Below, piece by piece: positions 3,354 through 60,561 of a stretch of 64,000 nt of DNA (position 1 is the first letter of the stretch; each line of letters begins with the position of its first letter). The DNA lies in the NCBI GenBank assembly GCA_036785375.1, contig JAWMAR010000044.1, forward strand, positions 2,852,001 through 2,916,000, in the 5' to 3' direction. A program made the translations under genes and the position numbers. This DNA is from Leucoraja ocellata (taxonomy: Eukaryota). The notes beneath the pieces were generated by a model. The model worked only from the letters and a program-made list of their open reading frames with translations, did not search any database and was not told where the DNA came from.

Positions 3354-3494
3354 TCTTCTTCTTGCGTATGGCGTGCACAGCCTAAAGATGCAGGCCAACT
3401 TGTTCTATTTGATCTTATTTGATTGTGCACGCTGGGTTGATTGCATTGGTCAATAATCAGGGCGGACCACGTGAAGGTTGCAATCTCCCACCCC
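3354..3494 (-). mobile_element. Short non-autonomous element with 5' HDV-like ribozyme and Vingi-like (AAG)n tail
   Basis: TSD acctagtacac (3342-3352) / acctagcacac (3495-3505). 3' end reads ccatacgcaagaagaaga. Internal 9-bp inverted repeat at 3371-3379 / 3424-3432. Confidence 0.8.
3439..3494 (-). ncRNA. HDV-like (CPEB3-type) self-cleaving ribozyme with minimal P4
   Basis: GGGGTGG-GA-GATTGCA-ACC-TTCACGT-GGT-CCGCCCT-GATTATTGA-CCAA-TGCAATC gives a 7-bp P1 with G1.U wobble, a 7-bp P2, a 3-bp P3, a 7-nt L3 and a C-N-A-A J4/2. Confidence 0.8.
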
Positions 3495-4979
3495 ACCTAG
3501 CACACTAACTCTAATCTACACACAATTTTACAATTCTACCGAAGCTAATTAACCTACAAACCTGTACGTGTTTGGAGTGTGGGAGGAAACCGGAGCACCC
3601 GGGGCCAACCCACAAGGTCACGGGGAAAATGTACAAACTCCATACAGACAGTACCCGTAGTCAGAATCGAACCCGGGTCTCTGGCGGTGTAAGGCAGCGA
3701 CTCTACTACTGCGCCACCACTTTCTAGCCATTCCCTCCACAGATGCTGCCTTACCCCTGAGTTACTGCAACACTCTATATATCACCACAGATTCCAGCAT
3801 CCGCTGTTCTTTGTGTAGTCAGCATCCTTTTCAATTTAATAGGGGGGTAAATGGGACTGATGTAGATTGACATCATAGTTGGCACAGAAGAAGTGAGACA
3901 AGATGGCCCATTTTCGTGCTATGTAATTCTATGATCATAGAACAGCCAGTGAATATCTAAAGCATTGATGGAAATCTGTCTGAACACAAAATCCATTTGG
4001 AGTTATGCCTGGGCTGAACAATAAGGCTCAACTTCAGATATAAAACAAAGCATTAAATTGACAACTCGCTGCACTGATCAAACCAGTAACCATGAGTAAA
4101 TTAGTAGTTCTGCTTAATGTGTAAAAACCTTCTTATTTCATTGTCTGCTGCCATGAATGATGAAAGATGGCATTTATTGCTTCGAATTAAAAGGTAGTGG
4201 CAGCTGTTTATGAGAGCTTTTGTTGTTAGAAGAGGCAGAAATCATTGTTTGAGGTGGTACTGACTGAACTTAATATGATAATTGAAAATTCCAGCATTTA
4301 ATAAAGATCACACCTGCTGGTTCACTGTTCTGTTCACTTATAAGCCATTTGCAACTTAAGCAAAAAAAAAAAATTAACTCTAAAAGTATTCACGGCCCGT
4401 ATTTTGTTGCCAAAGAGCTGGCCAGTATGATGGGTTGTCTCATTATTCATGAGGTAATTGACCTGCATCGTGCAAGAAACACAATACACTCAACATTTGT
4501 AAAGATGAGGGAAATTCCCTAATACAGAGGTAGATTTTAAGATATTCTCCTTGAACAAGAATGTTGTGATATCACACTTGTTGATGCTAATTTGATTCTG
4601 CTTGACCAATTTTGGGCAATCTGATTCAACTTTCAAATGACCAAATATATCTACAGTTACCTGCATGTTAGTTATTATGTCATTGTTACCTTTGCATTGA
4701 TGGAGTTGCTATGTTACTCTAAGAACCTGTGTCATGTAATTAACCATTGAATGTACCATACTTCAACTCAGTTGGAGAGTTTGTAACTACTGATCAAAAC
4801 ATGTATACTTGATGCTCCCAGCTAAATGAATTGCATAATTCTGCATCTGACTGACTGATTGATTGATTGAAAGATAAGGATACAGGTGGAACACAGTCTC
4901 CTTGGCTCACCATATCCAAACCAAGCATCAATCACCCGGTCACACTAGTTCTATATCGTCCAAAAAAAAAGCATAGTGG

Positions 4980-5292
4980 CGGCACAGTGGCGGCACAGTG
5001 GCGCAGCGGTGGAATTATTTGCTGCCATACAGGGCCTGGATTGATGGGTTTGATCCTGACGACAGGAGCTGTCTGTACAGACTTTGAACATTCTCCCTGT
5101 GACTGCATGGGTTTTATCTGGGTGCTCTGGTTTCCTCCCATGTACAGGTTTGTAGGTTAATTGGCTTCGGTAAAACTGTTAAATTTCCCTTGCGTGTAGG
5201 TTAGTATTGGTGCATGGGTGACCGTTGGTCAGTCTGGACTCAGTGGGCCGAAGGGCCTGTTTCTAAGCTGTATCTCTAAAGTCTAGTCTAAA
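4980..5292 (+). mobile_element. HE1/V-SINE
   Basis: A-box head ggcacagtggcgcagcggt, V-domain, tail ctgtatctctaaagtctagtcta. Confidence 0.85.
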
Positions 5293-5359
5293 CGCACAAA
5301 TTGCTGGAGTACTTTGTGCCTTTCTTTTGTAAACTAGCATCTGCAGATCCTTGTGACTA

Positions 5360-5550
5360 TGTTATCCCAGTTTTCCATGATCCACTCCCTACACAAAAAG
5401 AGCAATTCAGGAGGCCTAATAACCTACAAACCGACTGACTTTGGGATGTAGGGGGGAACTGGATTACCTCGAGGAAACCCAGGTGGTCACAGGGCAAATG
5501 TGGAATTCACACAGACTGCACTCAATGTCAACATGGAACTGGGTCTGCAA
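5360..5550 (-). mobile_element. Diverged HE1/V-SINE fragment
   Basis: Degenerate reverse V-domain (aacctacaaacc...gaggaaacccaggtggtcacaggg). Confidence 0.6.
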
Positions 5551-5862
5551 GTCTTTTCCCAACACTTTCCTGCACCTTCACGATTCTTGCTCACTTTCCT
5601 TACTTCTTTTATTTCTATCTTTTTTAAAGCTCGAAAAACGAAGTGGTACAAGTGGTCTAGCACTGCAAGACCAATGGTGATGAGGATGGATACCTACTGG
5701 AGGGAGATTTTGCCAAATCTGCCTCTTAAGGAAAGCATTGTAAAACAGAAGGACCCATCCCTGAATAATAAAGATGCTGCAGGTGTAAAAAGCGATCAAG
5801 ACATTTGGCAGAAACAGAACAAATTGGGTACGTTGGAATATTGGTAAATATGAAATATGAAG

Positions 5863-6152
5863 GGGCAGCACGGTGGTGCAGCAGTAGAGTTGCTGCCTTA
5901 CAGCGCCAGAGACCCAGGTTTGATCTTGATTACGGGTGCTGTCCGTATGAGTTTATACGTTGGGTGGCTTTACTCCGGGTGCTCCTGTTTCCTCCCACAG
6001 TCCAAAGATGTACAGGTCTGCAGGTTAATTGGCTTCGGTAACATTGTAAATCATCCCTTGTGTGTGCGATAGTGCTAGTGTATTGGGATTGCTGGGCAGC
6101 GTGGACTCGGTGGGCCAAAGGGTCTGTTTCAACTCTGAATCTCTAAACTAAA
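5863..6152 (+). mobile_element. HE1/V-SINE
   Basis: tRNA head, V-domain, tctctaaactaaa tail. Confidence 0.85.
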
Positions 6153-6904
6153 AGTGTTTAGTATTTATCGTGAATGACTGGATCTGTTCTTCAATGCAAG
6201 TACTTTTTTGGTAAACAAAACGGTGCCAGTATGCACATAAATGTTCACACCAAACCATGGGTTGCTGTACATCAATCTAGTCTTTAATTGTTTAGAGGTA
6301 TCGGTACGTTGTACCACCACATACCCTCACCAAAAAAGCAGAGATCAAAGCCAATAACATTGTCAATGTTCTGAAGAACAACATGCAGTAACCTGTGTCC
6401 AAGAAGATCCAAAGGGATATTGAGGTGAAACATATTCACTTATTGTCACATTGTGGTGCAGTTGATGTCTTGTTTGAAGATGAGGTTGAAAAAATAAACT
6501 CATACTTCAACCTAGCATCATCTAAAACATTTGAAAGCGATAGGTTTCCTGCACTTGTGAAAATGCTGGAGGAACAACTGACAATTACATTGTGACTTTG
6601 AGAGACTTACCAAGACAAATAACAGGGCAACTGGAAAAATGCAGAGCAGGGCTGAGGCACAGCAAGGACCCAGTGGGCTGAATGGCCTCCTCTTGTGTTG
6701 TAATAAATATGTATCTGAGGAGCAGGTGAGGTTATAGTTTGGTTGATGAATGAATACATTCTCAGCTCTTTAACCTTCTAGACTTACTTTTGGAAAGGTA
6801 AGTAGAATTGCCATTACAATGGAAATGGAATTGAATAATGCAAACATGTTTAAATTAATTCAAGACATAGGGAGAAAATGATTATACAATCTTGATGTAG
6901 ATAG

Positions 6905-7350
6905 CAGTGCCATAGAGCCATTGGGCAAAACAGCACAAAACCAGCCATTTGGCCCACCTATTCCATGTCGATTAAATTGGCATGCTGGGATTGTCCCATT
7001 TGCTTGCAATTTGCCCATATCCCTCTAAACTCTCCCTAATCAGATATCTGTCCAAATGTCTTTTAAAAGTCATAATTGTATCCACTTCTATAGCTTTCTA
7101 TAGAAGCGCATTCCAGATACGGACTTCCCTCTGCATGAGAAGGTTGCCCCTGAGGTTCCTCTTAAATTCCTCCCCTCTTATGTCTCTTTTTTTTAGAATC
7201 CTCCACCCTGGGAATACGACTACAAGCGCTCACTTCATTCATGCTCCTCATCATTCTTGTGCATATCAATAAGGTCTCCCTCAGCCTTCTGTGATCCAAA
7301 AAAAAGTCCCAGCCTGTCCAAATTTTCCCAATTACACAAGCCCGCTAGTC
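6905..7350 (-). mobile_element. CR1/HER1 LINE 3' fragment
   Basis: Reverse CR1 3' end; the ORF track shows ...NLDRLGLFF...GDLID. Confidence 0.75.
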
Positions 7351-7509
7351 TCTTGGTCTCCCTTTGCTCCTGTGGTCTGTTAGACGTGGGCTCTGAATGG
7401 TATCTGTGCTGTGCCCTACAGAAATACCACTGAGCCCCTTCCCTGATGGTTGTTGAAAAAGGAGGAGGGGCATTATATGACCAAACAGGTTGGACTGATA
7501 ATATGCAAT

Positions 7510-7580
7510 AGATCGAACCCGGGTCTCCGGCGTTACAAGCGCTGTAATGCAGCAACTCTACCGCTGCGCCACCATGCCGC
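7510..7580 (-). mobile_element. V-SINE tRNA head fragment
   Basis: gatcgaacccgggtctccggcg...ctctaccgctgcgccaccatgccgc. Confidence 0.75.
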
Positions 7581-7596
7581 ACAGATTTAAGTAATG

Positions 7597-7728
7597 AAGT
7601 CTGAAGAAGGGTGCTGATGTGCAACATTGTCTATCCATATCTTCCAGAGATGCTGCCTGACCCACTGAGTTACTCCAGCACTTTGTGTTTTGCTCAATAT
7701 TCCAGTATCTTCAGTTTCTTGCTTCTCT
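7597..7728 (+). mobile_element. Penelope-derived unit with degenerate hammerhead
   Basis: gtctgaagaagggt followed by a mutated core, then gatgctgcctgacccactgagttactccagc. Confidence 0.7.
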
Positions 7729-7791
7729 ATATTCATGGTCACCGTTACTAATGTTGGTTTTTAATTCATAATTTCTTTAATTTCTTAAATC

Positions 7792-8095
7792 TGGGCGGCA
7801 CGGTGGAGCAGCGGTAGATTGCTGTCTTACAGCGCTTGCAACGCCAGAGACCTGCATTCGATCCCAACTATGGGTGATGTCTGTACGGTGTTTTTTACGT
7901 TCTCCCCGTGACGGTGTGGGTTTTCTCCTTGATCTTCGGTTTCTTCCTACACTCCAAAGACATACAGGTTTGTAGGTTAATTGGCTTGGGTTTGTATACT
8001 TGGTATACGTGTAAATTGTCCATAGTGTGTGTAGGATAGCGTTAATGTGCGGGAATTGTTGGTCGGCGCGGACTCGGTGGGCCAGAGGGCCTGCT
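7792..8095 (+). mobile_element. HE1/V-SINE
   Basis: gggcggcacggtggagcagcggtag head and V-domain. Confidence 0.85.
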
Positions 8096-8343
8096 TCTGG
8101 CAGCATCTCTGTAGAAAGTGGATTGGTGACGCCATGGATCGGGACACTTTATCAAACGGTTGCAACTAACTTTGCACTATTACAGTTTATCTGAGGAACT
8201 CGTTAATAATAAATAATGTTGCTGGATGAAAATGTAGTTTCCACTGTAGTATTCCGGCACCAGCATCAAAAACTGATGAATAATCAAGTTATCTTCTCTG
8301 TCCTAAAAACTTATCTTTGACTCATTCCTTACAACAGCAACCT

Positions 8344-8400
8344 TCCCTCCCCCTCCCCCTCCCCCTCCCCCTCCCCCTCCCCATCCCCCTCCCCATCCCC
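8344..8400 (+). repeat. (CCCCCT)n / (CCCCAT)n microsatellite
   Basis: Read directly; G4-capable on the minus strand. Confidence 0.9.
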
Positions 8401-9084
8401 ATTGTAACAGAAGAACATGTTATCATTTATTGCACTTGTCCAAGCCCTCTCTAACTGAACCTGCCAATTTAATGCCAAATTAGAAGCAGTTTTGGGTAAC
8501 AGAATAAATTTATAGAGATGGACAGTCACCATCTGTGAGGCACAAGTGGGGAACCGCTATTCCTAAAAGCTGCTCAACCAGGTTGATTCCTCTCTCACAC
8601 ACACTACACCTATTGTCCCACCTGATTTCTGATCATTCTCTACGCAGCTGCTCAGAGACCCTCCTCTTTTGGAAGAGCTGAGCCAATACCTACAATACAA
8701 TACAGACCAGCTGTTTAATAAATGACCTACCTACCATCAGCCGGGTGCAGTTGTGACTCCGCTGGGTAACATTGATCCAATCTGCCTGCTCTGGTCAGGA
8801 ATTTAAAGAAAGAGGAATGATTACCAATGACTGCAAAATAAAGGCATAATTTTTGGGGAACCCATTAGAGCTCGTAAGACTACATCTGAATTATCCGCTC
8901 CAGCTACCAGTATCTGTAAACCATTCATCTCTTGGTGTTTAATAGATTTGTTTCAATTTAAATCAGGGTTTTACTACTTTTAGACAGAGCTTGTTTTTAT
9001 TATAACTCTTAAATATGTTGAAACACATTGTTAATTAAATGGCAGTGCATAAATGCATGCATTTGCTATTTTTGTCAGAAGTGT

Positions 9085-9470
9085 AAACATAGAGAACATA
9101 GACCAGTGCTGCTCAGGTTCAGGCCCTTCAGCCCACAATGTCTGTGCTACACATGATGCCAAATTGAACGTATCCCTTCTGCCTGCACATGATCCATATA
9201 CCTGTTCCCTGCATATTTATGTGCCTTTCGAGAAGTGTCTAAAATGCCATTATCATACCTGTTTACATAATCACCCTTGCTGACACATTCTATGTGTAAG
9301 GATCTTGCCCTGCACATCTCCTTTAAACTACCCCCCCTCGTGCTTTGAAGCTATACTCTCTAGTGTTTGACATTCTAATCTAGGAAGGTTCCAACTGTCT
9401 GCTATATCTAAACTTTGATTAGAAGTTTATGAACTTTCATTAGATTTCTCCTCAGCTTCTGATGGTCCAG
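9085..9470 (-). mobile_element. Diverged CR1 3' fragment
   Basis: aacatagagaacatag tail and caggcccttcagcccacaatgtc. Confidence 0.65.
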
Positions 9471-10568
9471 AGTTTATGCAAATGTTCTTAAAAAAGAACA
9501 AGTCACACAATAAACACAAATGCAACTATTGTCCACTTTGAATTTCAGAGTTTATGACCTTGTGCCGTCTCTCATGCCTGATGTACAACCCTAAGCAAGA
9601 ACTGGGTTATCAGTCCATACAGAAATTTTGTTATTTGGCAGATACAATGTGGAAGAGACAAATTCAGGATAGTAACGAACATCCCAACTATATTTTCTAC
9701 CTTTATTTATTTCTCATGTGCTCTGGATATGAACTGAAACAATAACATTCCTACTTGCTATAGGTTTACAGGCACATTAGACACTACAATAATAATAACT
9801 GCAATAAATGATCAGTTATTCTAAGTAAACCAGATGATGAAAGCACAAAACCCGAGGAACAGACAAACTATGGTAGAACAAAGTCTGTATTGGTTTGATG
9901 CTGGTAGGATTTTGTTTAAGGTTGTGCAGGATGGTTTAAGGGTCATATGGTGGATGGGAAGAAGCTGCTCTAAAACCTGAGTGTTTCTCAGGCTTCTGTA
10001 CCTTCCTCCCAGTGGTAGCAGATAGACGAGAATGTGGCCAGAGTGCAGTGAGTCTATGATGATAACAGCTGCCTAATTGAGAACATTGAGTTTGTGGGTC
10101 AACAGGTCCAGAACGAGGCATCAGTGGAGTGGGCCGCTGGAGGCCCTGCAGCAGCCTGAGGCTCGAGTGAATCAGATGCCGCTCCAAGAGGCCAAGCATA
10201 TGGGGTGGACGTGGCTTGCAGCAGCTCAGAGTGGCGGAGCAGTGGTGGTGGACATCAACAACACTCCTGGGCAGACCAATCCTCCAACTCCGACCCAGTG
10301 TACCCACCAGGACAATGGGCCCTCATGGCCAAGTTAAGACTCTACATTTAAGACTCTACAACAAAATGGTGCTGGCCATGCAATATGGCAAATCTTGTGC
10401 ACTGTCTCAGCATAATCTACTATTCCTACACTCTTGTACTTAAGTATGACTCTGCCTATGTATACAAGATTTTTACTGAACTCTATGCAAAAAATAATTT
10501 TCACTGGACCGAGGGCACTTCCTGTAGATCACTGATGATGGTGAGATCAGTCCTCGTGATGGATCAAC

Positions 10569-10913
10569 AGGAAGGCAACCTCATCTGCATTACACAGCTA
10601 CATCTCTTCACCAGATAAAAACTGTCCAGGGTCTGACCTCCCCAGAGGAGCATGAGTGAAGCTCAACAGACTTTGTACTGGAGTTGGGCGTTTCAATGCC
10701 AGCATGTGGAGATGGGGGCTCCACCAGAGCCCAGCCTGTGAATGCGGAGCAGAACAACAGACAGCCAACCATGTCATCTCTGGGTGCCCGCTCTACCACC
10801 CACCAAATGGAGCTCAGGGCCTGGCAGACATTGACGCAGAGGCAACAACCTGGCTGCTCAACACCCGGCTTGAGATCTAACTTTGGTTTATGTTTCAGTT
10901 GCAAGAAGAAGAA
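10569..10913 (+). mobile_element. Vingi (Ingi-group) LINE, 5'-truncated
   Basis: ORF ...KLNRLCTGVGRFNASMWRWGLHQSPACECGAEQQTANHVISGCP... (CCHC-like C-terminus), stop at 10880, (AAG)n tail. TSD gatggatcaac at 10558-10568 / 10914-10924. Confidence 0.8.
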
Positions 10914-11509
10914 GATGGATCAACCAATGTCCAACACTTTCTACAGTCTAGCGTCTTAAATACCGAACCAGGCCGTGATTCAACCAATCACCATGCCCGC
11001 CTCTGTTCACCTGTAGGTTCAATTTTAACATTATACATTTTTTAAATTCCTTATAGATATATATTTCATGCTTAAAATCGTAATGGTATGAATTCCCTGT
11101 CAGGAGCCAGCTTCATTGTCTATGTATATTTTTATTCAAAGTTGCCTTGACTAGGTGGTGTTCTTCCTAAGCTTCTGGTAAAGATTAGATGCTACTGAGT
11201 GGCTTGCAAAGTCACTCCACATGGATGTCAAGGGTCAGTGGCATGGTGTGAGATTAACATCACAGGCTAGGTATGGACATCAAGTTTCCATTTCTGAAGG
11301 ACTTGAGTCAATCTGTCAGGCATTCATGACAATGGTTACTTTTTAGTGGTAAAGACTTCTCAAAAATCCAGTTGTGTTAAGAAATTCATACACCTTATTT
11401 GAGAATCGAACTTGCTTTCACTGGACTAATTGACCAGTAACCCAATCACATTGCCAATGTTCCACACATGCACACAAAAATGCACATTTAAATAGAGTTT
11501 GGAATGTAC

Positions 11510-11810
11510 ATATTAGAGTCATTCAGCACAAAAATATGCCTTTCGGCCCAACTCATCCATGCTGACCATCTAAGCTAGTCCCATTTGCCTGCATTTGACC
11601 CATATCCCAGTAAATCTTTCCTATCCACGTACTTGTCCAAGTGTCCTTTAAATGCTGTCATAGTATCTTGCTCAACCACCTCCTCTTTCAGCTCGTCTCA
11701 TATGACCACTACATCTGAGTGAAAAACCTGCCCCTTAGGTTCATATTAAACCTTGCCCCCCCCCCCCTTAAAGATTTGCCCTCTTAGTTTTGATTCCCAT
11801 ACCCTGGGTT
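11510..11810 (-). mobile_element. CR1 3' fragment
   Basis: ggcccaactcatccatgctgacc...tttcctatccacgtacttgtcc. Confidence 0.75.
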
Positions 11811-12371
11811 GGGGTTTTAGGTTTGGCGGTAAATTTATTGCCATTTTTAAAGCTCATGTTATATTGACTTTTGTATTCGGTGTGGACATTAAACATGAAA
11901 CAAATGTATTCAAAGTTTCAAAATATGATGATCATTTTTACAAAGAATAGTCTTTAATATTGCAGCATCTGCAGATAATGCATGTCTATCTACCCTTGTG
12001 CTGCCTACAAAACAGTGGGTAGTCAAGCTTGGCGAACATAATGAAATACTGCATTAGTATTAAATATTTGTGATCTCTATAACTCTTGGCAGAGCAATAC
12101 CCTTTGGCCCAATGGTGCTGCCTGAGCTCAAGACCTCTTTCATTATTAGAGAGACGAATGTCAAGGTCACAGTGTCTCTGTTCTAAGAGAAGATTTATCC
12201 AGCGGTAGATGCAAATGACAGAATCCATTAAAATGACCTCATCAATTAAAATAAATAAATAGCGATGGACAGGCAATATATTTTTGATGAAGATGCCTTT
12301 TCCGTTTTAAAAGCATTTTAGGAAAATAAAATTAGTATATAATTTTGGTTTGCAGTCATCAAAGGGGTAAT

Positions 12372-12642
12372 CTTTAGACTTCAGACTTTAGAGATACAGC
12401 TTGGAAACAGGCCCTTCAGCACTACCAAGTCCGCATTGACCAATGGTTGCCCTTTACAATTAACCTACAACCCTGTATGTCTTTGGTGTATGGGAGGAAA
12501 CCTGAGCACCCGGAGAAAACCCATTCGGTTCACAGGGAAAACATACTGTACAAACTCCGTACAGACAGCACCCATAGTCGGGATCGAACCTGGGTCTCTG
12601 GCGCTGTAAGGCAGCAACTCTACCACTGCGCCACTGTGCCAC
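12372..12642 (-). mobile_element. HE1/V-SINE
   Basis: Complete head, V-domain and (tttagac)n tail. Confidence 0.85.
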
Positions 12643-13534
12643 CCAAATTAATCCTATAATTAAGTGTCCCAGCAAAGATCTGCAGTCAGTGCAATGTGTG
12701 GGAGCTGCTTTTCTGGTGTTTTATCTATATCCTAACAACTTCACTCCCATCTGGAAACAGGTGAGTGCAAATTTAAACTTGCTATTTGAGTCTGCTTACT
12801 TTGGATTTGGCTGTTGAGAAAACATGTGCAGATTTTCCCTCATGGATCAACTAATTGATGCATATTAACTATATTCCATAAATTAATATTTCTGTTTATC
12901 CTATTCAGAGGGTTTATCGGTGAGGCCTCAAATGGTTTAGACATGTGGCGAATTTAACCCCACCTAAAATAAATATACTATTCCTCTCAAATATCACCAT
13001 TAAATTCAATTCGATGTTAAAATAAAGTTATGTGGATACTTTTACCCTCTGTTTTTCTCTTTTATATCCCTAGTTTTAGTTTAGTTTATTGTCACGTGTA
13101 TCCATGATTATAATCAAACAGTCCGCATTGCACAGATCTGCTGTTGAAGTAATAATTTAAAAGAGTGGAGCGTTTGTAATAAATGATTGCAGATCCACTT
13201 CTGGGACCAGCATACATGGAGTCACCTGGCTACGATGCCATCTTGGTTCCGATCTTTTCCCTTTCATAAAGGAATGACATATCTTCTGGATAACAGCTGC
13301 CCTGCACTATCTTCCTTATTTGTCCACGCTTCATTTGTATACCCCTTACAAATGGAGGTAGCAGGCGATTTGATCAGTCTTTGAGAGCACAGCCAAGCTT
13401 GCCCTGCTTGAGGTGATGCTTTCTGCTGTATGCCCATCTTGAAATAGTAAATGTATGCAAACACCAAGAGCATGTCTAAAAGTAAACAGAAACTGCACTG
13501 CAATCCACAGAATTATTTTCATCTCAGGAATAAG

Positions 13535-15462: not shown

Positions 15463-15607
15463 CTTTTGTTATGAGACATGATTGAGCTCTTGAAAAGAGA
15501 GCAGACAGTTGTAGATCTTGGCTGTGTAATGTAGTCAGAGACAATAGCATCCTCTATATAATGTACATAACCCAGTAGAGGATGAATAGTCCAAGATATA
15601 CAAACAA

Positions 15608-15738
15608 GTCTGAAGAAGCGTTTCGGCCTGAAACGTTGCCTATCTCCTTCGCTCCATAGATGCTGCTGCACCCGCTGAGTTTCTCCAGCATTTTTGTGTA
15701 CCTTCGATTTTCCAGCATCTGCAGTTCCTTCTTAAACA
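15608..15738 (+). mobile_element. 131-bp Penelope-derived hammerhead unit with 12-bp TSD
   Basis: TSD atatacaaacaa at 15596-15607 / 15739-15750. The unit starts gtCTGAAGAagcgtttcggcctGAAAcgTT. Confidence 0.85.
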
Positions 15739-37829: not shown

Positions 37830-38812
37830 TAACATAAGAATTATAAGCAGGAGTAGGCGGTTTGGCCTGTGTTTTATAGTGAGATCATGGCAGATCTTTC
37901 ACCTAGTGCCACTTTCCTGCATCCTTTAATTCCCCTGGCATCTATAAATCTATCAATCTCTACCTTGAATATACTCAGCTGCAAAACCTCTACATCCTTC
38001 TTGAGTAGGGAATTCCTATCCGAACTTCTGAGTGGGGAAACTTCTATACTTCTCAGTCCCGAATGGCCGACTTCTTATTTACCGTGGTTCTAAACGACCC
38101 AGCAGAAGAAACAATAACCCTCCATCTAACTTGTCGAATCTCATAATAATTTTGCATGTTTCAATGTGATCACCTCTTCTAAAGTACAGCTCCAATCTGC
38201 TTAACCCTTTCTCATAGCACTACAACCTCTCCCAGCAATCATCCCAGTAAACTTGTATTGCACTCATATTGGAAGAAAGCAAGCAAGACGGGTGTCAGGT
38301 TTTATGGGGAGAAGTGGGGTTGAGAGGGAAAGATGGATCAGCCATGAATGAATTGCAGAGTAGGTGTGATGGACTGAATGGCCTAATTCTGTTCCTATAA
38401 CTTAAGAACTTATGAACTTATGAAATCTTTTTTTTATATGGGAAGATCAGTTTGCTGCACAATATCTCAGACATGGTCTCACCTAAGCTCCAAGTAATTG
38501 CCGAATTACATCTTTCCTCTTCAAGTCAAATCTGAATGCTGTAAAGGAAATATGCCTCCTCAACACTACCATTCAACATAGTATCAGCTACGAAAATGGA
38601 TATTTTACACATGGTCCCCGTATCAAAATCATTGATATAGATTATTAATAGTTGGGTCCCCAGCACCAATCGACGTGTATTTCACTTTTCATAATCTCCC
38701 AACTGCAACTTTAAACCTTCTGAGACTTCCTTGCCTACTCCACCATTCACTGAGGCAGTGTTCTCCAGATGTTAATCACCCTTTGGGTGAAAAATAATTC
38801 TTCCCCTCTCAT
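37830..38812 (-). mobile_element. Diverged CR1 fragments, with a nested plus-strand CR1 tail at ~38285-38422
   Basis: aacataagaattataagcaggagtaggc tail and decayed RT sequence. Confidence 0.6.
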
Positions 38813-39805
38813 TACACAAAAAGCTGGAGTAACTCTGCGGGACAGGCAGCATCTTTGGAGAGAAGGAATGGGTGGCGTTTTGGGTCGAGACACTTCTTCA
38901 GACTGATTAGGGATAAGGGAAACGAGAGACATAGACAGTGGTATGGAGAGATAAATAACAATGAATGAAAGATATGCAAAAAAGTAACAGGCCATTATTA
39001 GCTGTTTGTAGGGTGAAATGAGAAGCTAGTGCGACATGGGTGGGGAAGGGATAGAGAGAGAGGGAATGCCAGGGCTACGTGAAGTGAGAGAAATCAATAT
39101 TCATACCACTGGGCTGTAAGCTGCCCAAGCAAAATATGAAAATCCTGTTCCTCCAATTTACGTTTAGTCTCGTTCTGGCAATGGTGGAGACTTAGGACAG
39201 AAAGGTCTGTGTAGGAATGGGAAGGATAATTCAATTACCAGCAACCGGGAGATCAGGTTGGTTCACGTGGGCTGAGCGAAGGTGTTCCATGAAATGATCG
39301 CCCAGTCTGCGTTTAGCCTTGCCGATGTACAAGAGTCCACATCTTGAAGAACAGGCACATTAGATGAGGTTGGAGGAGGTGCAAGAGAACCGCTGCCTAA
39401 CCTGAAAGGACCTGAAAGGACTGTCGGGGTCCTTGGACAGAGTCAAGGGAGGAGGTATAACAACAGATTTTGCATCTTCAGCAGTTGCAGGAGAAGGTTC
39501 CTGGGGAGGGGGTGGTTTGGGCGGGAAGGGAAGAGTTAACCAGGGAGTTGCGGACGGAATGGTCTCTGTGGAAGGTGGCGAGGGGTGGGGGGTGGGAGGG
39601 CTCGAGGTGGGATTGTGTTGGAGGAGCATGTTGTATGTGACGGCTGATGGGGTGGAAAGTAAGGACCAGGGGGACTGACTCTGTTGTGACAAGTGGGAGG
39701 GGGAGCAAGGGTGGAGCTGCAGGGTACCAAGAAGACACAATTGGGGGCCTCATCTATGAGGGGAGAGGGGAACCTCCATTCCTTAAAGAATGAGGACATT
39801 TGCAT
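38812..39805 (-). mobile_element. Penelope-like element (Neptune-type) 3' part: RT thumb, Cys linker, GIY-YIG, 3'UTR, degenerate hammerhead
   Basis: Frameshifted MSSFFKEWRFP, VPLVLTFHP, PGTFSCNC..., QVRQRFSCTSSNLI, CSRCGLLYIG. Hammerhead at ~38873-38901 has two core mutations. Confidence 0.85.
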
Positions 39806-50374: not shown

Positions 50375-50978
50375 TGGGCCCGTCCCACTTAGACGATTTT
50401 TCAGGCTACTGCCGGCGACAGTCAAGTTACCGGCAGTTGCCTAAAAAACGGCAACTGGAACGGCGATTGTTATAGTGGAACACACACACACAAAACATCA
50501 CTTCCCTCACCAGCCCGTTATGCAGGCAGGGGACAGGGCAAGCAGGGTGAGCGCTGTCTGAGTGAAATTCACACAGTGCAAAGCCAAGGTGCTACAGACA
50601 CACACCAAGATAAGCAGGAAGGTTGGCACTCTAATTAAGACGCCTAAAGCACAGTGTACAGTAAGTCCTTTAAAAGAGGGGAAGGGGAGGGAGAAGGGGG
50701 GGGAGAAGGGGGGGAGAAGGGGGGAGAGAAGGGGGGAGAGAAGGGGGGAGAGAAGGGGGGAGAGAAGGGGGGAGACAACTTTTAAGAAGTCAGAGATACA
50801 CAGCTGTGAAGCTCGGCGCACATTTAACTTTATCGGTCGGTTATCCTTGGTTCTGAAAAGTACTGCTTATGATTTTTTACCCAATGAGCCAATGAAATTC
50901 ACCGGTCAGCACCAGCTACAACCTATGAGAATCTACGAGAACCTTCAACCTCCTAGCGACTCACTAGGAACAGGCCCA
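50375..50978. mobile_element. PIF/Harbinger-like MITE containing a G-rich minisatellite
   Basis: taa-tgggcccgtccc ... ggaacaggccca-tta; (GAGAAGGGGGGA)n at ~50680-50775. Confidence 0.75.
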
Positions 50979-53599
50979 TTACAAATGCTGTTTAGTTATA
51001 TTCACAATGCCTCAGAAAATGAAGTTGTCCAGACCATGTACACCAATACCTGACCAACCTCACTGCCTGGCTTTATAGGTGGCAAGTAATATTTACACCA
51101 AATGTGCATGGGAGTAGTGACAATTTAAAACAAGTAAGGCTAACCTTCTCCTTTGATGTTTGTGGCCAAAGTGGTGTGTGGACGGGTGTGCATTTTTTTA
51201 ATGATATCCCAACATATTGCACGGCCAGGTACATTGCCAGCAACAACTGTACCTCACAAATGAATATACAAAGATGGAGATTTGTGCTTGATAAGACTTT
51301 GAGAGTGGTTTAAATTTTAAACAGCTAGCTTTTTTTTTAATATACTGCAGCGTGTTATTTAGATTCCGTAAATAGTTATCCCAATATCTCATTTTGGAAT
51401 TTAAATCAGAAACAACAGTCCGCAGGTTAGAAATGTATCTTTGGTTGAATAAACATTAAATTCTATTGAAGTCAATGGAGCCAAACTTAAAATTAAACAA
51501 GTTCAACAGATAAACAATACCACATTACGTATTCATGATGTCTATTCCCTATTGCCTCTGTATACAACTGTCTCCATAAAGTAGTTGTGAGATCTAATGC
51601 AACTCGTGTTAAAGGCTTGAATTACATATGAGAATAATGATGCTGCTGTTATGGATCAAACGGTTTGTTTATGGCAACGAAGACTAACTGAAAGATTAAA
51701 GACTTTTATCAGAAATTGTAGCCGCTATGAATGAATCAAGTGCCCTATGGTGCGAAAAAAAAGAGAGCTGCACTAATGTAGATCAAACAACCTTGGGTAC
51801 ATGCAAAAGTATCATAATGTCTTCAAAATCTGGGGTTCAATTCATCGAAGTTTAAGAGTAAAAACTGGCTATATTGAGTTCAAGGAAAGTTTACGGAGAC
51901 TATATTAGCTTCAGCCCAACTGATTATCCTATGAAAGGAAATAAGGACTATAAGAGCAGAATGAGTGATTGGTGACGTTTTATTTTGTTAACTTTCATGA
52001 AATTAAGTGTTAAAAGTGATTTTAGTTTATAATACAACCAAAGGGTTGAACGTGTGGTGAGGAGGAGGGAAGCCATTCAGAACTGTTGCTCAGTATGTTC
52101 CAAGTACAGTTAATTTTTAAGTATGAATTTGATTATTTTGGCACTGTCAGTAAGTTAAATTAACATTCCCTTTAGTAGTCAGCTTGTGTGGATTCCAGTA
52201 AGGTCCAAATGAAATGCACATTGGAGCAAATGAGAAAAAGGCTCAAAACCCCCTTGATTGACAGCTTCTTTCTGTTTTAGGGATTATGTCAGGATTGGGG
52301 AGGATTATGTCATTTACTTCAATTAACCCTTCTGTTTAACTTTGGCATTTTTAGTGTGCTGAGTTGCAATGAAGTTGAGACCTTTCACCTCCCTAGGAAT
52401 TATTACATTTTTCTACTTACACGTAATAAACAAAGGCATATTCGCCCATTTTAAATACTCAAATGCTGAATTTAATTTTTGATTCCTTCATTTCTCTTTG
52501 CTGGTGGTTCAACGGAGTGTCAGAGATGTTGATGCGGACAACAAGTTACGCGGGAAGATCCGCCCTCGAACAGTTAAAGAAAGTAACATCTGCTTTTGAT
52601 TTGAGGTCCAGTCAATGATGTTTTGACTGAGTCTTCTTGAGGACTTTTTGTACTTCATAGTAGTTTGTTGTTGAATAACAAATGAGTTTTAGATCAAGTC
52701 TTCCAACTTCGCCCCCACATATTGTAGGGGGTGGAGAAGGGGTTAGGTCGGGGTAGATTGCCGGGCTGATACATGGTTTAAGTTTGTTGTAGTGGCATTA
52801 GTTAAAAACTGAAATAGACCTTCACCATTTTCCTCAATGCAATTAAACAGCATATTTTTTTAAATCAATAGAATAGTCAGATTAATGTTGATGATGGACT
52901 ATTATTTCATTTAGTGGCAGTCGGAGACTTAACACCTAAAATACACAATACCAATGTTAATAGCATATATTTCCCCAGTTGTATTACTGGGGAATGCAAA
53001 ATCAGATACTGGTAACAGATACGATCAATTACTAATACCTGTACTTACTGGAATCAACAGGAATGTGAAATTCATTGAGGTACACAGGATTTTTGGGAAG
53101 TATTGACAGAGCAGATGCGCAGAGACCTTTTCTAGTTGGAGAATCCAGAACTAGGAGGAGCAGTCTCAAGGGAAGGGGATAGCCATTTAGGAATGAGCTG
53201 AAGAAGGCTACCCATACTATCCACTAAGAGTAAATGGAAAAGCCACGCAGAATTGATGTTTGAAGTAGCAGGCGATTTATAAAACTGGTGCGCACCAGGA
53301 GACCAGTCAAAGCTGATCTGCTGAGCACAACTTTGGTACACCTTTTATATTCTCAGTTGACAAGATTACACAGAAACTTGATTAACAACAAAACTAGGTT
53401 TGATTACAGAATGGAGGTTACAGAAATACTTCATTAGGTAACAAACTCGGTCTTGATTACAGAATGAAATGATTATCCACAAGTCTAACTTTGTTTTCAA
53501 ACTTTGTTTTTGGATAACTTCCATTGTGCTGTCTGGCTCTACCTTCATGCTAAATGGAATATAGTCAGAAAATGTCTGTCAATGCGACGTTGGGTAACT

Positions 53600-54790
53600 A
53601 TAAGGCACTTTGGTCACCTGCAGTAGCAGGAATATACCCCACCACGATATGTGAACAGAAAACCTTGTATATTCGTTATACTATCACTGCCTTCATGCAG
53701 AGGTTTAAACCTGGTCATACTTCCTACAAGAGAATTTGGGTGAGATTGCTGGTCCTTAATCCAAGTTGTTTCTAGAGGAATTCTCAGCTTCTCCAGTGTC
53801 CAGTGTCACAGTGTCCAGAGCCTAACCATTTTCAGCTGCTTCATCAATAGCCCTATTTCCATAATAAGGTCAGCAAGGGAAGATTTACTGACTACTGTAT
53901 AATTCCATTCCATTGCAACTCCTCAGAAAATGAAGCAGGAAAATGAAAGAATGTTCATGCACATGGCAAGTAACATCTGTGCTTGCAAATATTGTTCCAA
54001 AAAGAGAGAGTCCAATCATCTATCCTTGATATTCAACGGCATTACCTTTGTTGGGTTCCACATCACCATTCTTAGAAACTTAACAAGTCCTGCCACAGTG
54101 AAAACAAGGGGTGGTCAGAGACTTAGTATTCTGTGACAAGTTACTCTCCTCCTGAGAACCCGGATTTATTCCATTTACTGGACAGAAGTTCAGTATGTGA
54201 TGCAACACTCTTCATATACATGCACGAGTGCTACTCCAATAATACTCAACAGGCTTGACACTATCGAGACAAAGCATTCCACTTTGTTGGCACTACGTCC
54301 ATGACTCAAACATTCACTCACCCCAAAAATTGCTTATCTTCGCCATTTTCTATCAAACGTGTATACTATGCTACATTTATTCACCAAGAATACTCCAACA
54401 GCACTTCAAAATCTGTGACCTCTGCCACCACTAGTGACAAGGGCAATGGATACACCAGAACAGTCTCATCTCCAAATTACACACTATCTGGGTTAGGCCT
54501 TCATCATGACCATGTATAAATCCTGAACTCCAAACTTTATAACATTGGGCATTGGGAGTCTGAATAAGGGGCCCAAACTGACCCACTGAGGTACTCTAGC
54601 ACGTTGTGATTTTCTCATGTTTTTAACACCTGCAGTTCCTTGCACCATTTTATTTCACTGGAAGTACCATCTCCAAATGGACTACAGCTGTTCAAAACAA
54701 TGGCACAAATCACCTTGGCAAGGACAATTAGCAATTGGCATAAATATATTGTCTTTGCAAGTGACAATAAATTCACAAAACAAAATTTAA
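53600..54790 (+). mobile_element. Ancient decayed LINE (CR1/L2-like)
   Basis: Degenerate RT-like sequence. The 3' end ggactacagctgttcaa...caaggacaattagcaattggcataaat is also seen at 1630-1800. Confidence 0.5.
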
Positions 54791-54914
54791 AAAATAAACA
54801 CTGAGGTTTATAAAACTTTGGAATCCTTTACGTCAGGGTCTGTGAATATCTAGTCCTTTGTAATTTCAAGGCAGAGATCAATAGAATTGTGAACACCATG
54901 GGAATCATAACATA

Positions 54915-55736
54915 GGCTGCACCCTCAGCCCCCTGCTCTACTCACTCTATACTCATGACTGTGTAGCCGGACACAGTTCGAACTCCGACGACACCGCCAT
55001 TGTTGGACGAGTTATAAATGTTGATGAGTCAGAGTATAGGAGGAAGATTGATCGACTGACTAAATGGTGCCAGAACAACAGCCTTGCTCTCAACATCAGT
55101 AAGACCAAGGAAGTGATTGTGGACTTTGGAAGAGGAAGAATGAAGATGCACAAACCTGTCATCATCGACAGAACGGTGGTGGAGAGAGTCACAAGCTTCA
55201 AATTTGCGGGCGTGCATCTCTCGAAAGATCTGTCCTGGACCCAGCCCATCGATGCAATCATAAAGAAAGGACATCAACGCCTCCACTTTCGTCGAAGATC
55301 GAGGAGATTCAGTATGTCGACAAATACTCTCTTGAACTTCTACAGGTGTATAGTAGAAAGCATATTGACTAGTAGCATCACAGCCTAGTTTGTCAACTCA
55401 AGCGCCCAGGAATGAGGAAGAATGCCGCCCAGTCCATCACAGGTACTGGCCTCCCCACTATCGAAGGGATCTACAAGAGTTGCTGCCACAAAAAGGCATC
55501 CAGCATTATCGGACACCCACCCTGGCAAGCTCTCATTTTACTACTGCCATTGGGAAGAAGGTACAGGAGCCTACAAACTGTAACTTCCAGGTTCAGAAGT
55601 AACTTCTTCCCTACAACCCGGGTTGTAGGGAAGAAGTTCATGTTATTAAACACTACGACCTCCAAATAGGCCCGAACTATATGGACTTGAGGTCATTAAT
55701 TTTTTTCACTACTATTGTCTATTTATTTGTCTGTTT

Positions 55737-55788
<52 letters not shown>

Positions 55789-55925
55789 TGCACTTTTTGT
55801 TGTTTATTATTGGTGTTTTCAGAGTATTATGTTTACATTTCTGTCGTGCTGCTCCAAGCAAGAATCCCATTGGTCCGTTTTGAGACATATGACAATAAAA
55901 CACATTTTACAATAAAACACTCTCT
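54915..55925 (+). mobile_element. Rex1/Babar LINE fragment (RT to 3'UTR)
   Basis: GCTLSPLLYSLYTHDCVA...DDTAIVG; IVDFGR...ERVTSFKFAGVHLSKDLSW...NFYRCIVESILT; (AT)n at 55740-55787. Confidence 0.9.
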
Positions 55926-56320
55926 CGATATATGAATAAGGCAGAAAAGTGACTTGAAGAATCGGGTCAAATTGTAAAGGAGCTTGTTCTCATTATACTG
56001 TTAGTTGGTGATAGACTGGGATTGTGGTATTAGAATTAGTTGGGAATGATGCTGGCCCTAGAATTGGACATATAATTATTAAGATGCTCGTAATAAAAAT
56101 TATATTAACAATATGTTGCAATAGTATTGAATGACACATTTATATGTAAGTTACAATGGATCTACTATTCATAACTTGCATTTTGTTCTTGTATTGTACT
56201 AATGTCAGTAATACCTTGGCATAGATTCCTGTTTTGCAAATAGATATGAAACAAAATTCTGCTAATGGGAAGAGTGCATCATTTGTAATAGATTTCAAGT
56301 AACTGAAGTTACTAGCATTA

Positions 56321-56413
56321 ACTGGCTATGTTACTGATAACATACTGGCTGTAACATACTGGCTATGTTACTGATGACATACTGGCTATAACATACTGGC
56401 TACGTTACTGATA
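56321..56413 (+). repeat. Compound minisatellite (23-bp and 14-bp units, 37-bp period, about 2.5 copies)
   Basis: actggctatgttactgataacat alternates with actggctRtaacat. Confidence 0.85.
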
Positions 56414-57636
56414 GATTGGAATCAACACTACTTTGTTCATCCATTGATAAAAGAAAGAAAAGGATTTAAACTTATCAGTCTCGTGCATGTCCCGCTCATC
56501 AATAAAAATGTATGGTATCTGCTATCCATAATTTCAGGATCAAAATGGGTAATAGATCGAGATGAATGAAGTAATTGAATGTCTATACAATGGGACACGC
56601 TCTGTATTCCAAAAGCATTAATGGGCATAGCTTTTGTGATGTTGATCAATAGACCAAGAAACATACAAGGACAAATCTAATTTGGTTCATTAATATGAAA
56701 TATTTATATCCCCAAAATAATTGTAACTAGAGCTGGAAGAATAGAAATGATTATTTATATGTAAGCATTTTAGCTATTCTTTCTTGCTGTCAATGACTTT
56801 TCGGCAATACTGCAGTTCAAATAGAATTGCTTAGTTAGTCCTTCCTATAAGTTGTCCAAGACCCATTATCTATGAGCTGACCTTTCAACTTATACATTCC
56901 AACTATTAATGCAAATCTATACTGAGGACAGCATCAAAAGCACAACATTCATGTTATGACAAAGTAGCCAAAATCTCTGAATTCTAAAAATGAATTGGTG
57001 GTGCAGAGATTTCCAAAGTAATTGAATCCCTGTACTGTGAAAATAAGAGTCTTGTGTGTGGATGATGGACAGATATTGATTCTGATATTGATAGTGACCA
57101 AGAACTGATGATGTTATTGATTCCAGAATGCATAATTGCTTTATGTCAATTTAAGCATGGTTAAGGAGATAGTTTAAATTTATTCTTCAATCTATTTCAG
57201 GTCACCCAGTACCATAATTCTCCTTTAATCTTTTACTAGAAAAAGCGATGACCAGAAAGATTAATTAGTATAGATATCCTATAGGTATCAAAGCAGCATT
57301 TGTGTAAAACAAAATTCATCTTCTTGAATGTCAATATCTGTCTCTCCATCAATACGATTGTTATATTCTGTATCGCCACACATATTTTATCATCACTATG
57401 AACTATATCTTGATCAGGATCTTTTATTTTCATGAATGTCTGCTTTGGTATTAGTGAAAATGAAACACTATTTGGATGGAGGTAGGGGACTACATTAAAG
57501 CTGAGCTTAGTGCTATTCTCACTTAACATCCACACTTCTGAATTTCGAACAGGAATCAGGCAGTTGTGAGCAGGAATACTTGGAGACGTTGTCCTGGAAC
57601 TTAAGGTGCCGTCATTACAGTTGTCCCATCACTGCT

Positions 57637-57952
57637 TTAGTTTAGTTTAGTTTAGAGATACAGTGCAGAAACAGGCCTATCGGCCCACCGAGTCCGTGCC
57701 GACCAGCGATTATCACACACTAACGCTATCCAACACACACTAGGGATAATTTACAAATGTTACCAAGCCAATTAGCCTGCAAGCCTGTTCATCTTTAGAG
57801 TGTTGGAGGAAACCGGAGCTCCCGGAGAAAACCCCTGCAGGTCATGGTGAGAACATACAAACTCCGTACAGACAGCACCCTTAGTCAGAATCGAACCTGG
57901 GTCTCCGGCGCTGTAAGGCAGCAACCGTACAGCTGCGCCACCCTGTCACCCT
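57637..57952 (-). mobile_element. HE1/V-SINE
   Basis: Head, V-domain and tail. Confidence 0.9.
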
Positions 57953-59099
57953 AAATCATTTGCTGAATCAACCAATTCAGCATTACAAAATGGATTAATG
58001 GGAAGTGCTTTTATCAACACTCCTGGCACAGCATAAATGAAGGCAAAGTAAGCTTTTGCTTAGTGCTCAGAAAGTCTGAGATTTGGTGAATTATTTTAAA
58101 ATATTCATTGGTTTTCATATTGATATCTGGAAACTCAAGATGAAATATTTTGTACAATTTTAGCTGTTCTCTTCTGCGCCAGCTCATTACATGGGATTCT
58201 TTCCCCCGCCACCTCTTTTTATTATTATGCAGGACAATGTCTAATGTTATGAAGATATTTCCATGTGTGGGGAGATTTAACACACAGTTTGTGCCTGAAA
58301 AGCTCCAAATGTACAAGACTAATGGAACTTTAGCTGAGTAAGGTACCACTGTACCTAGTATTTTTTTTTTTACTATTTTTTACTATTGTACCTATTATTT
58401 TCTTTTAAGTTATTTGTAATTTCCAGAAAACTTGAAAACAGGAGAACCTATCAATATTGGATCAGGGTAGGACCACCTACAAAGGAAAAAGCAAAGTAGA
58501 CATTTTATGTTGAAAACCCATCATCAGACCTCCAAAAACCTGCCTTACACCAATGTCAACTCATGCTGTTCCTAGATTTCTCTGCTCATATTATACTCAC
58601 GTAAAGTCAGGATACCCAAGTATTAATACAGATGAAAGGTAGAGGGTTTTTTCATGTTGTCGAGGCTTATAAGCCTGAGAAAATATATAACACCTATCTG
58701 AGGACAATATGTCAGGATGAAAATTCAGTGGACAAATTCTTATCATAAACAAAGGATATGTTTGACATTGTAATGAATTTCACGTTGGAGCCAAATGAAA
58801 AACAAAGCCAATTTTGTGGTGTAGCAAACTTAAAGTTGATGAAAAGAAAATGTAAGTGTTGAAGTGGAGATTTATTTTTAGTGGGTTTTCCAATGGAAAA
58901 TTTAGTATGATGTTATATTTGGGGAATTTGGGGACATATCGCAGCCTTGCAATTCTGCCTTTTAAACCCAAAATAATTTATCTTGGCAAGAATGCTGATA
59001 ATTCAGAACTGAACATTAAGCAGGTCTAGACACACCAATACATTGTCTTGTTCCTTTCATCAAGGTTAGAAAACTTGGTGCATCATTTTAATTTAGTGA

Positions 59100-59580
59100 G
59101 TGGTTCAATGGTTCAACGTTTCTTTATTGTCACGTGTGCACTGCAGAGTTAAATCTTCTTTGTATTGCTTAGACATGCACAGGTTGTCATATTTGGGTCC
59201 CATTTACACAAGGAAAAAGTCCAAGGTCCAGTCCACATGCTGGATGTACTGGAGAGCCCCTGATCCAGATAAGCCCAGGTAGGCCTCAGGCTGTTGCAGG
59301 GCCTCCTCCAATGCCCCTGTACCAACATCCCTCTCCTCGCTCAACCACCCTTGTGTCCCGGGGGTGCCCCTGCAGCTAACCTTGAAGGCGCTTCAGGCAA
59401 TACCCCAGTCCATCTTCTACCGGCCCATTCCTCTCATCCAATGTCACCCACAGCTCCCTCCTCCTCGACTCGCTGGTCTCTGGGGCCGAGCCTGGCGGCT
59501 TCCGAACTTCACCTGCAGGCAACGGCCCAGCGAGTCCTCCATCGTTCCCAGCTGCCTGCCGGGTTCTTCGCAGCAAATGG
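59100..59580 (-). mobile_element. Diverged GC-rich Rex1-tailed element
   Basis: (tggttcaa)n tail with tttattgtcacgtg; GC-rich body. Confidence 0.5.
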
Positions 59581-60177
59581 AACATTTTCTAATTAACAGT
59601 CTACTCTAATTCTATCCAGCAATACAATTTTTTTAAGCACACAATAGAAATGTAACTGTGAGTACCACATGGGACCCATGAAATCCTAGATAAACATACA
59701 GCAATAATTACATTATAAATTTGCTAAATTATCATTTGCTAAATGGCTGTGTTTTTAGCAATCGAAATGAAACATCAATTGCTCTTTTTTTTCTTTCTTC
59801 AGTCCACCAATCCCCGTTATCTCAAACTTTATTAAAACCTTAAATCACAAAGGTTCCTAATGTTAACAGCAAAGGCATTATCTCCTTTAAGATGAATGGA
59901 TGCACACCCCTGTTAAGTATCACACTGGGAAACATCATGTGAATGTGTTGAACATTCATCTGCTATTATGCTGACAACGGGATGTAACCTACGTTGCTCA
60001 CTTGACCTTGTGAAAAAGATTTATTTCCATGTACTGGAAATAAAAATCATTACGCTGCATCATTGAAAAGCTAATTCCACAGAAGGATTGTCTTCAGGAA
60101 CAAGTGTGAGGACTTGGTTTCTTTGCTCTCTAAATGAACTTGACTGGTTGCCCAAACTCTCAAGTTTTGCACAAAAG

Positions 60178-60262
60178 GGCACAAAGGCTGGAGTAACTCA
60201 GCGGGTCAGGCAGCATCTCTGGAGAACATGGATAGCTGACATTTCAGGCATGGACCCTTCAA
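60178..60262 (-). mobile_element. Penelope-derived unit, truncated
   Basis: gctggagtaactcagcgggtcaggcagcatctctggag. Confidence 0.75.
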
Positions 60263-60410
60263 GCCATTATACTCTCACTGATTTCTCCATTAACACTGGT
60301 TGACCCAAAATGAGCAATGGAAGTTCTTGCACATTTTAGGGCCACATCACTTCCCAAAATTCTTTACAACTCATAATGCGTAGATACTGCAGCGATAATG
60401 CAAACCTAGT

Positions 60411-60561
60411 TCGTTCGCACGTGCGTCAGACGACGTATTGCGCGCTGTTGGCTTCTGTCGTTGTCCAACATGTTGATAGAATTGGTCAACCGACACGTCA
60501 CAGAGTTCATCGTGTGGTCGTTTCCGGGGATCGCCACGAGGAGGCTTCTGTCATGATCCCC
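60411..60561 (-). mobile_element. 151-bp CpG-rich non-autonomous retroelement with 5' HDV-like ribozyme
   Basis: Perfect 13-bp TSD atgcaaacctagt at 60398-60410 / 60562-60574; 3' stem-loop and a (GAAC)-like end. Confidence 0.85.
60500..60561 (-). ncRNA. HDV-like ribozyme fold (catalytic C apparently mutated to T)
   Basis: GGGGATC-ATG-ACAGAA-GCC-TCCTCGT-GGC-GATCCCC-GG-AAACGACCACACGA-TGAA-CTCTGT. Confidence 0.75.

Follow-up and report, generated by a model that had tools for sequence, protein, structure and literature searches.

Are the short ribozyme-bearing repeats gathered in one stretch of the Leucoraja ocellata genome independent families of mobile elements, and how do they acquire their ends? 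The 64,000-bp stretch analyzed here (contig JAWMAR010000044.1, positions 2,852,001–2,916,000; hereafter the window) belongs to a 3.44-Gb assembly. It carries two kinds of mini-elements that open with hepatitis delta virus (HDV)-like folds, that we named A and B, together with repeats bearing a hammerhead motif. The original prediction described three independent families resembling short interspersed elements (SINEs), each released by its ribozyme from read-through transcripts. Our analysis leads with good confidence to a different reading. A and B would be internally deleted copies of Vingi-type long interspersed elements (LINEs), starting at the first nucleotide (G1) of an HDV-like fold, likely released by this ribozyme and copied in trans. 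The hammerhead repeats would be clipped ends of a Penelope-like element (PLE).

Two distinct HDV-type mini-elements are indeed present. Families A (142 bp) and B (151 bp) have been amplified as units with target site duplications (TSDs) and have no coding capacity. Exact copies of the first 35 nt of A number 1,484 in the genome and those of the first 36 nt of B 42, compared with none for the reversed controls. Copies of A differ from their majority sequence by 6.8% on average (28 copies) and those of B by 9.8% (25 of 27 copies, the two others being too divergent or too short). By combining exact-match counts with mean divergence, we estimate that the genome contains 1–2 × 10^4 copies of A and about 1,500 of B. 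Both are abundant and retain an intact fold. As a cross-check, three more A copies were found in 0.58 Mb of flanking DNA and one in 140 kb of unselected DNA, and a first look gave 1,495 candidates for B. Many pairs of loci have near-identical flanks at two places (e.g., L143/L136, L144/L145, and L351/L352). This suggests duplicated haplotypes in the assembly, and copy counts are possibly inflated. About 0.2–0.4 copies of A and 0.03 of B are expected per 64 kb, which yields some hundreds of windows holding both. The presence of A and B in the same window is thus what their copy numbers predict; their co-occurrence requires no explanation, and that of the three kinds of repeats is not meaningful. 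A-like sequences are also present on contigs from other organisms.

In agreement with the claim that these repeats lack an RNA polymerase III (Pol III) head, no A-box/B-box pair was found in A or B, nor in the hammerhead copy (the box search was positive in one of two tRNA-SINE controls), and no tRNA gene was found. They are not SINEs in the strict sense, as defined by a tRNA, 7SL, or 5S head; the head of the A and B elements was traced to a LINE.

The 5′ ends of both families are precise. We analyzed the first 30 loci returned by each search, chosen by head pattern alone. The upstream TSD abuts G1 in 24/28 unique copies of A and 19/27 unique copies of B, compared with 7/866 and 13/864, respectively, for mismatched flank pairs, and TSD length peaks at 11–12 bp. 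The base preceding G1 is a T in 16/28 A and 18/27 B copies and is otherwise variable. It recurs in the 3′ TSD in 22/24 and 18/19 copies, respectively, and therefore belongs to the target DNA. As the TSD adjoins G1, the start of the element corresponds to the position at which an HDV-type ribozyme would cut.

A descriptor of the nested HDV pseudoknot gave two matches, A and B, in a 204-kb survey set (the window and 14 stretches of 10 kb). None was obtained in the reversed sequence or in any of ten shuffles. Both elements show P1, P2, P3, a 7-nt L3, and the J4/2 cytosine of HDV-like folds; P1.1 was recognized by eye only. In the window copy of A, all 17 pairs of P1, P2, and P3 are intact and the catalytic-position C is present; P2 of the B fold has one mismatch. 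The A fold is 54 nt long in 38 of 41 descriptor matches (56 nt in the window copy). Its P4 is shrunk to a 7- to 9-nt linker, and the gap between P1 and J4/2 is 7 nt in 39 of the 41 matches. An ungapped 36-nt core, ordered P1-J1/2-P2-P3-L3-P3-P1, is shared by nine heads: those of A, B, five LINE families, and two more short elements. They are identical to A or B at 17–27 of the 36 positions, yet 146 of 153 pairs are formed when the best match in each head is taken as the P2 partner. Up to five pair types are found per position, and strands swapped between families form a mean of 11.2 of 17 pairs. A and B are themselves identical at only 20/36 core positions; the head of locus L314 forms only five of seven P2 pairs. 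Judging from these comparisons, the fold is maintained across families through paired changes.

Each family can be assigned a parent. By sequence comparison, A corresponds to the first ∼77 and last ∼40 nt of its own 2.8-kb Vingi-type LINE. B corresponds to the first ∼124 and last ∼27 nt of a second, separate 2.8-kb Vingi-type LINE. The parent of A surfaced as one of 12 pattern matches, in which the A head is followed by DNA coding for an apurinic/apyrimidinic endonuclease (APE); the other 11 were ordinary A copies. A pattern built on assumed 3′ codons of this parent gave no match, the assumed upstream codons being wrong. Among 13 parent loci, eight carry the A head, seven the A tail, four both, and two neither. 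Over 65–77 nt, heads share 82–92% identity with a good A copy, and tails are 89–97% identical over 34–42 nt; these ends flank APE and reverse transcriptase (RT) coding sequence. One locus, L369, is 2.77 kb long with an 11- to 12-bp TSD. The head of this parent is as short as that of A and also lacks P4. For B, two of 30 B-head loci (L351/L352, one duplicated locus) carry its first 57 nt and run for 2.8 kb through APE and RT to its last 27 nt. Fifteen further parent loci were recovered. Six match B over 103–127 nt from its start (positions 1–124 or 4–124 in five loci at 83–90% identity, and 4–106 in one), two match only 97–124, and seven do not match. The 5′ parts (A 1–77 and B 1–124) thus correspond to LINE 5′ ends that lead into APE coding DNA, and the 3′ parts to the 3′ ends of the same LINEs (in 4 of 13 loci for A and in L351/L352 for B), as in short internally deleted elements (SIDEs) and bipartite elements.

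The RT regions of the two parents are 34–37% identical, in accordance with the proposed independence of A and B. In a midpoint-rooted RT tree restricted to families of this genome, the parent of B groups (100/100) with two LINE families bearing heads similar to the mammalian CPEB3 ribozyme. Vingi elements are described as compact, with one open reading frame (ORF) that encodes APE and RT and no RNase H (PMC13708176). The parents have these features, being ∼2.8 kb long with APE and RT. In the B parent, the 635 and 716 aa that extend from RT to the 3′ end gave only RVT_1 and no RNase H; tblastn was the sole support for the coding content of the A parent.

The Vingi-type fragment at 10569 had been proposed as a nearby helper. 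A Vingi-type fragment is present there, with 2,185 candidate copies of its end (10569–10913) in the genome, but it belongs to a third family. Exo_endo_phos_2 and RVT_1 were detected in proteins of this family. Walking upstream, we found APE and RT coding DNA and then its own 90-nt HDV fold, unlike that of A or B. We rejected it as the parent of either element: its head and tail are different (the sole likeness to the A tail extends over 15/16 nt) and its RT is 32–38% identical to those of both parents. It is a family distinct from both, and the proximity of the proposed helpers is without meaning. Two further LINE families with yet other HDV heads, recovered by protein search, were also rejected, as were the LINEs with CPEB3-like heads.

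We propose that a copy of A or B would be transcribed from a host or neighboring promoter and that its fold would self-cleave before G1, producing the precise 5′ end. A Vingi protein would then bind the parent-derived 3′ end and carry out target-primed reverse transcription, so that the inserted copy would be flanked by an 11- to 12-bp TSD often ending in T. A Pol III head would be unnecessary with such a ribozyme, which would have been inherited with the LINE 5′ end, not newly recruited. For A and B, the release from read-through transcripts put forward initially is therefore the likeliest, albeit predicted, mechanism; cleavage was demonstrated in R2 SIDEs (PMC3414825) and in NARTc/SIDER (PMC4035085). 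Alternatively, the head might be chiefly an internal promoter for Pol II, or a structure that binds proteins and protects the end, cleavage being weak or dispensable and G1 a transcription start. A promoter initiating at G1 would produce the same precise start, and Pr77 of L1Tc/NARTc is reported to be promoter and ribozyme together (PMC3383444). Furthermore, the A head lacks P4, and some adequate-looking SIDER folds failed to cleave (PMC4035085). However, in the A sample that is unbiased downstream, 25/30 copies retain both the catalytic-position C and the A after it (two show C-to-T changes at a CpG and three were unparsed), as do seven of nine compared heads. The G1 wobble, L3, and J4/2 also follow the HDV pattern in unrelated families, and promoter and ribozyme roles are not mutually exclusive. 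We consider a head acting mainly as promoter or protective structure to be improbable.

Apart from this alternative, several points weigh against ribozyme-released Vingi derivatives. The folds are known from sequence alone, and self-cleavage at G1 is a prediction. When 6% of a polyA RNA-seq run from a related organism was read, no read-start pile-up at G1 was listed, an observation that also favors the promoter or protective-structure alternative. Rfam gave no match for A, nor for the minimal hammerheads, and B scored 27.9 bits (E = 0.003) against the CPEB3 model (RF00622; cut-off 35), another B score being 31.3. Choosing the best P2 partner in each head favors pairing in the comparison of the nine heads. 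The TSD sample requires an intact 5′ 35- or 36-mer and is thus uninformative on truncated copies. Every parent copy seen is broken, and A and B diverge by ∼7% and ∼10%, so that the families may be extinct. Concerning the parents, about 17–25 nt in the middle of A were assigned no counterpart, and the 3′ match of B comes from one locus, duplicated, that has itself lost part of its ribozyme. The Vingi label derives from features, not from a tree with reference elements.

The hammerhead repeats had been described as an independent family of 120- to 150-bp mini-elements. Their sequence is that of the 3′ end of the PLE at 38812. The window contains 19 of these PLE-end fragments, about 40 to 960 bp long, four with the full core pattern, and the 204-kb set 83, of which 11 have the full core. 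The 14 other copies of the fragment at 38812 all show the same hammerhead-bearing end after GIY-YIG coding DNA; GIY-YIG scored above the Pfam cut-off in one of three proteins. A hammerhead-bearing end following a GIY-YIG ORF, an optional tail, and inverted 5′ copies are the attributes of the pseudo-long terminal repeat (pLTR) of PLEs, and head-to-head inversions are common here. No tandem direct array, as required of non-LTR retrozymes in the strict sense, whose units each carry a complete type I hammerhead, was found among the 19 window fragments. From their sequences, the hammerhead repeats are clipped 3′ pLTR ends of a PLE and not a family of their own. Similarly, the PLE fragment at 38812 does exist, but it is the same element less truncated and not a separate helper. 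The density of PLE ends is about one fragment per 2.5 kb, in the window as in L324–L337.

With its 2-bp stem I and palindromic stem III, the hammerhead core has the minimal form of the dimer type, and it is predicted to cut 30 nt inside the unit. It therefore cannot create the 5′ end, and release by ribozyme does not extend to these repeats. Among the 83 fragments, 31 start within an 11-nt interval at the front edge of the hammerhead, 43 further inside, and nine further upstream. The fragments would arise by PLE integration, often halting at this edge. It could be argued from these 31 fragments, some with clean TSDs, that solo units might remobilize. Non-LTR retrozymes, monomers included, are presented as non-autonomous PLE derivatives (bioRxiv 10.64898/2026.07.22.740005), which would accord with three independent SINE-like families, all ribozyme-released and forming a lineage-specific alternative to tRNA promoters. 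But cleavage 30 nt inside the unit would strip it of its ribozyme, and minimal PLE hammerheads are reported to cleave poorly, as dimers (PMC4209133). For a PLE of the anole, hammerhead cleavage was reported to be dispensable for insertion in vitro (PMC11167929). In addition, most starts lie away from the edge, inversions are frequent, and full cores are few. We regard three such families as very improbable, and clipped PLE ends as the explanation of the hammerhead repeats.

The closest reported systems are the minimal hammerheads of PLE pLTRs (PMC4209133; Cervera and de la Pena 2014), which the core matches, and the non-LTR retrozymes (bioRxiv 10.64898/2026.07.22.740005). They have in common with the repeats of the window the core, an unpaired base before stem II, a G-C closing pair, a palindromic stem III, and a majority of single truncated copies. 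The PLE ends of this genome differ from those systems by their very high density (83 in 204 kb) and by the lack of tandem arrays within the window. The supplements of this retrozyme preprint, covering one chondrichthyan genome, might include this hammerhead repeat.

Other Vingi-type LINEs of this genome carry heads similar to the CPEB3 ribozyme. Among 59 candidates scored with the Rfam CPEB3 model, 56 lie above the cut-off, at 35.1–64.7 bits, and no match was found in 14 control genomes. In 13 of the 25 top loci, the sequence runs on into DNA that codes for APE and is related to the Vingi-type query. Three full-length elements have a CPEB3-like head, an RT, and a (GAA)-type tail. By eye, L292 (1501–1571, minus strand) matches 55 of 62 CPEB3 consensus positions, P4 included; a LINE downstream of this head was looked for and not found. 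The first 37 nt of B match the consensus at 26 positions, with paired changes (also by eye). Neither A nor B reaches the 35 bits required for membership of the CPEB3 family, and the B head is, on this comparison, a more distant member of the CPEB3-like heads. As heads recognized by the CPEB3 model front Vingi-type LINEs, the mammalian CPEB3 ribozyme is likely to have originated from a retrotransposon. We are inclined to go further and to see in Vingi-type LINEs a radiation of HDV-like heads, from 54-nt P4-less to near-CPEB3 forms, each able to spawn its own promoter-less mini-element, the CPEB3 ribozyme being one such end that was domesticated.

Further CPEB3-like loci were noted. At L273–L301, L304, and L312, LINE 5′ ends scoring above the CPEB3 cut-off are followed by APE and RT coding DNA. 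The heads of L319 and L320 are also very close to the CPEB3 consensus, P4 included, and L319 runs into a short remnant resembling, by eye, the Vingi C-terminal cysteine motif. L314 and L318 contain an element of ∼165 bp, absent from the window, that has a CPEB3-like head, a remnant of coding sequence, and a (GAA)n tail. It represents a third HDV-headed mini-element family in the genome.

The design of A and B as short internally deleted elements is already known from R2 SIDEs and NARTc/RIME. In Drosophila, R2 SIDEs (PMC3414825; Eickbush and Eickbush 2012) are likewise short and internally deleted, with a 5′ HDV-like ribozyme plus their parent's 3′ end. They are also mobilized in trans without Pol III transcription, as predicted for A and B. 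They are reported as few elements of about 500 bp in rDNA, whereas A and B are 140–150 bp long, dispersed in 10^3–10^4 copies, and derived from APE-type parents. Elements NARTc, RIME, and SIDER of trypanosomatids, whose parents L1Tc/ingi form the sister clade, have, like A and B, a ribozyme at +1 and both ends in common with the parent (PMC4035085; PMC3383444). A and B differ from them by residing in an animal genome, by forming several parallel families with different heads, and by the P4-less head of A. With the heads inherited from parent LINEs and the design already published in these systems, a SINE-building route peculiar to this lineage, as suggested initially, does not hold.

Elements made of the 5′ and 3′ ends of a LINE, as A and B are, have been attributed to four clades, RTE, Ingi, Vingi, and R2 (Kojima 2018; PMC5786205). 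A ribozyme was suggested there as the reason why bipartite elements keep their 5′ end, and the list given of six clades with a 5′ ribozyme (R1, R2, R4, RTE, Ingi, plus LOA) omits Vingi, the type to which the parents of A and B are assigned. With its predicted ribozyme heads Vingi would join these clades, a candidate reason why few clades make such mini-elements. The P4-less head of A resembles the ∼54-nt minimal HDV-like (theta) ribozymes, reported to be nearly 99% phage-derived (PMC10879173); here, an animal LINE and about 10^4 derivatives begin with this fold. Sense copies lying in introns or untranslated regions could cut host transcripts. The mammalian CPEB3 ribozyme is a single intronic copy, whereas in this genome the CPEB3-like fold forms the 5′ end of mobile elements, a concrete candidate source. 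A and B would also mark natural minimal cis-elements (77 + 40 and 124 + 27 nt) for Vingi, a clade reported to be used in RNA-based gene insertion (PMC13708176). In the literature consulted, mostly titles and openings of abstracts, there is no description of the A and B families or of a Vingi origin of CPEB3. Three aspects appear to be new: Vingi-type LINEs with HDV heads, an animal LINE whose 54-nt head lacks P4, and sister heads that reach 64.7 bits with the CPEB3 model.

Table 1. Positions of the mobile elements and associated motifs identified in the window.
Feature	Position	Strand	Remarks
Family A copy, 142 bp, putative internally deleted Vingi-type element, (GAA)n tail	3353–3494	−	
tRNA-type SINE, host of the family A insertion	about 3267–3717		
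HDV-like fold of A, 56 nt	3439–3494	−	Descriptor match; G1 = 3494
TSD of A, 11 bp	3342–3352, partner 3495–3505		1 mismatch
Family B copy, 151 bp, putative internally deleted Vingi-type element	60411–60561	−	
HDV-like fold of B, 88 nt, long P4	60474–60561	−	G1 = 60561
TSD of B, 13 bp	60398–60410, partner 60562–60574		Exact
Third Vingi-type LINE family, 5′-truncated 3′ fragment	10569–10913	+	
TSD of the 10569 fragment, 11 bp	10558–10568/10914–10924		
Solo Penelope-like 3′ end (pLTR + tail), 131 bp	15608–15738	+	12-bp TSD
Minimal hammerhead core in the solo PLE end	15608–15639	+	Predicted cut after 15637
Longer Penelope-like 3′ fragment: GIY-YIG coding end, then hammerhead-bearing end	38813–39772	−	
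Inverted head-to-head pair of PLE ends	2464–2688		One among several

The window is rich in repeats (table 1). No host gene was recognized among the ORFs listed for it, and none of the matches listed was an RNA record containing this stretch. Inverted repeats lie behind the HDV-like folds at 3353–3438 in A (9 bp) and at 60411–60473 in B (two interleaved 6-bp stems); by eye, they bridge the 5′-derived and 3′-derived parts. In X24, a polyA RNA-seq run from a relative, reads of A are about 2:1 on one mate orientation and those of the host SINE about 1.4:1 on the opposite one. This skew could reflect a loss of sense copies; as strandedness is unknown and all copies were pooled, we did not use it as evidence. 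One Vingi-type family (L197, L208–L210, and many small contigs) shows a 1.8-kb partial tandem with two heads and two endonuclease regions. The tandem sits in a larger unit found on dozens of small contigs, reminiscent of satellite or segmental amplification. At L172, an insertion that we take to be RTE-like begins with another HDV-like head and lies inside a Vingi 5′ end.

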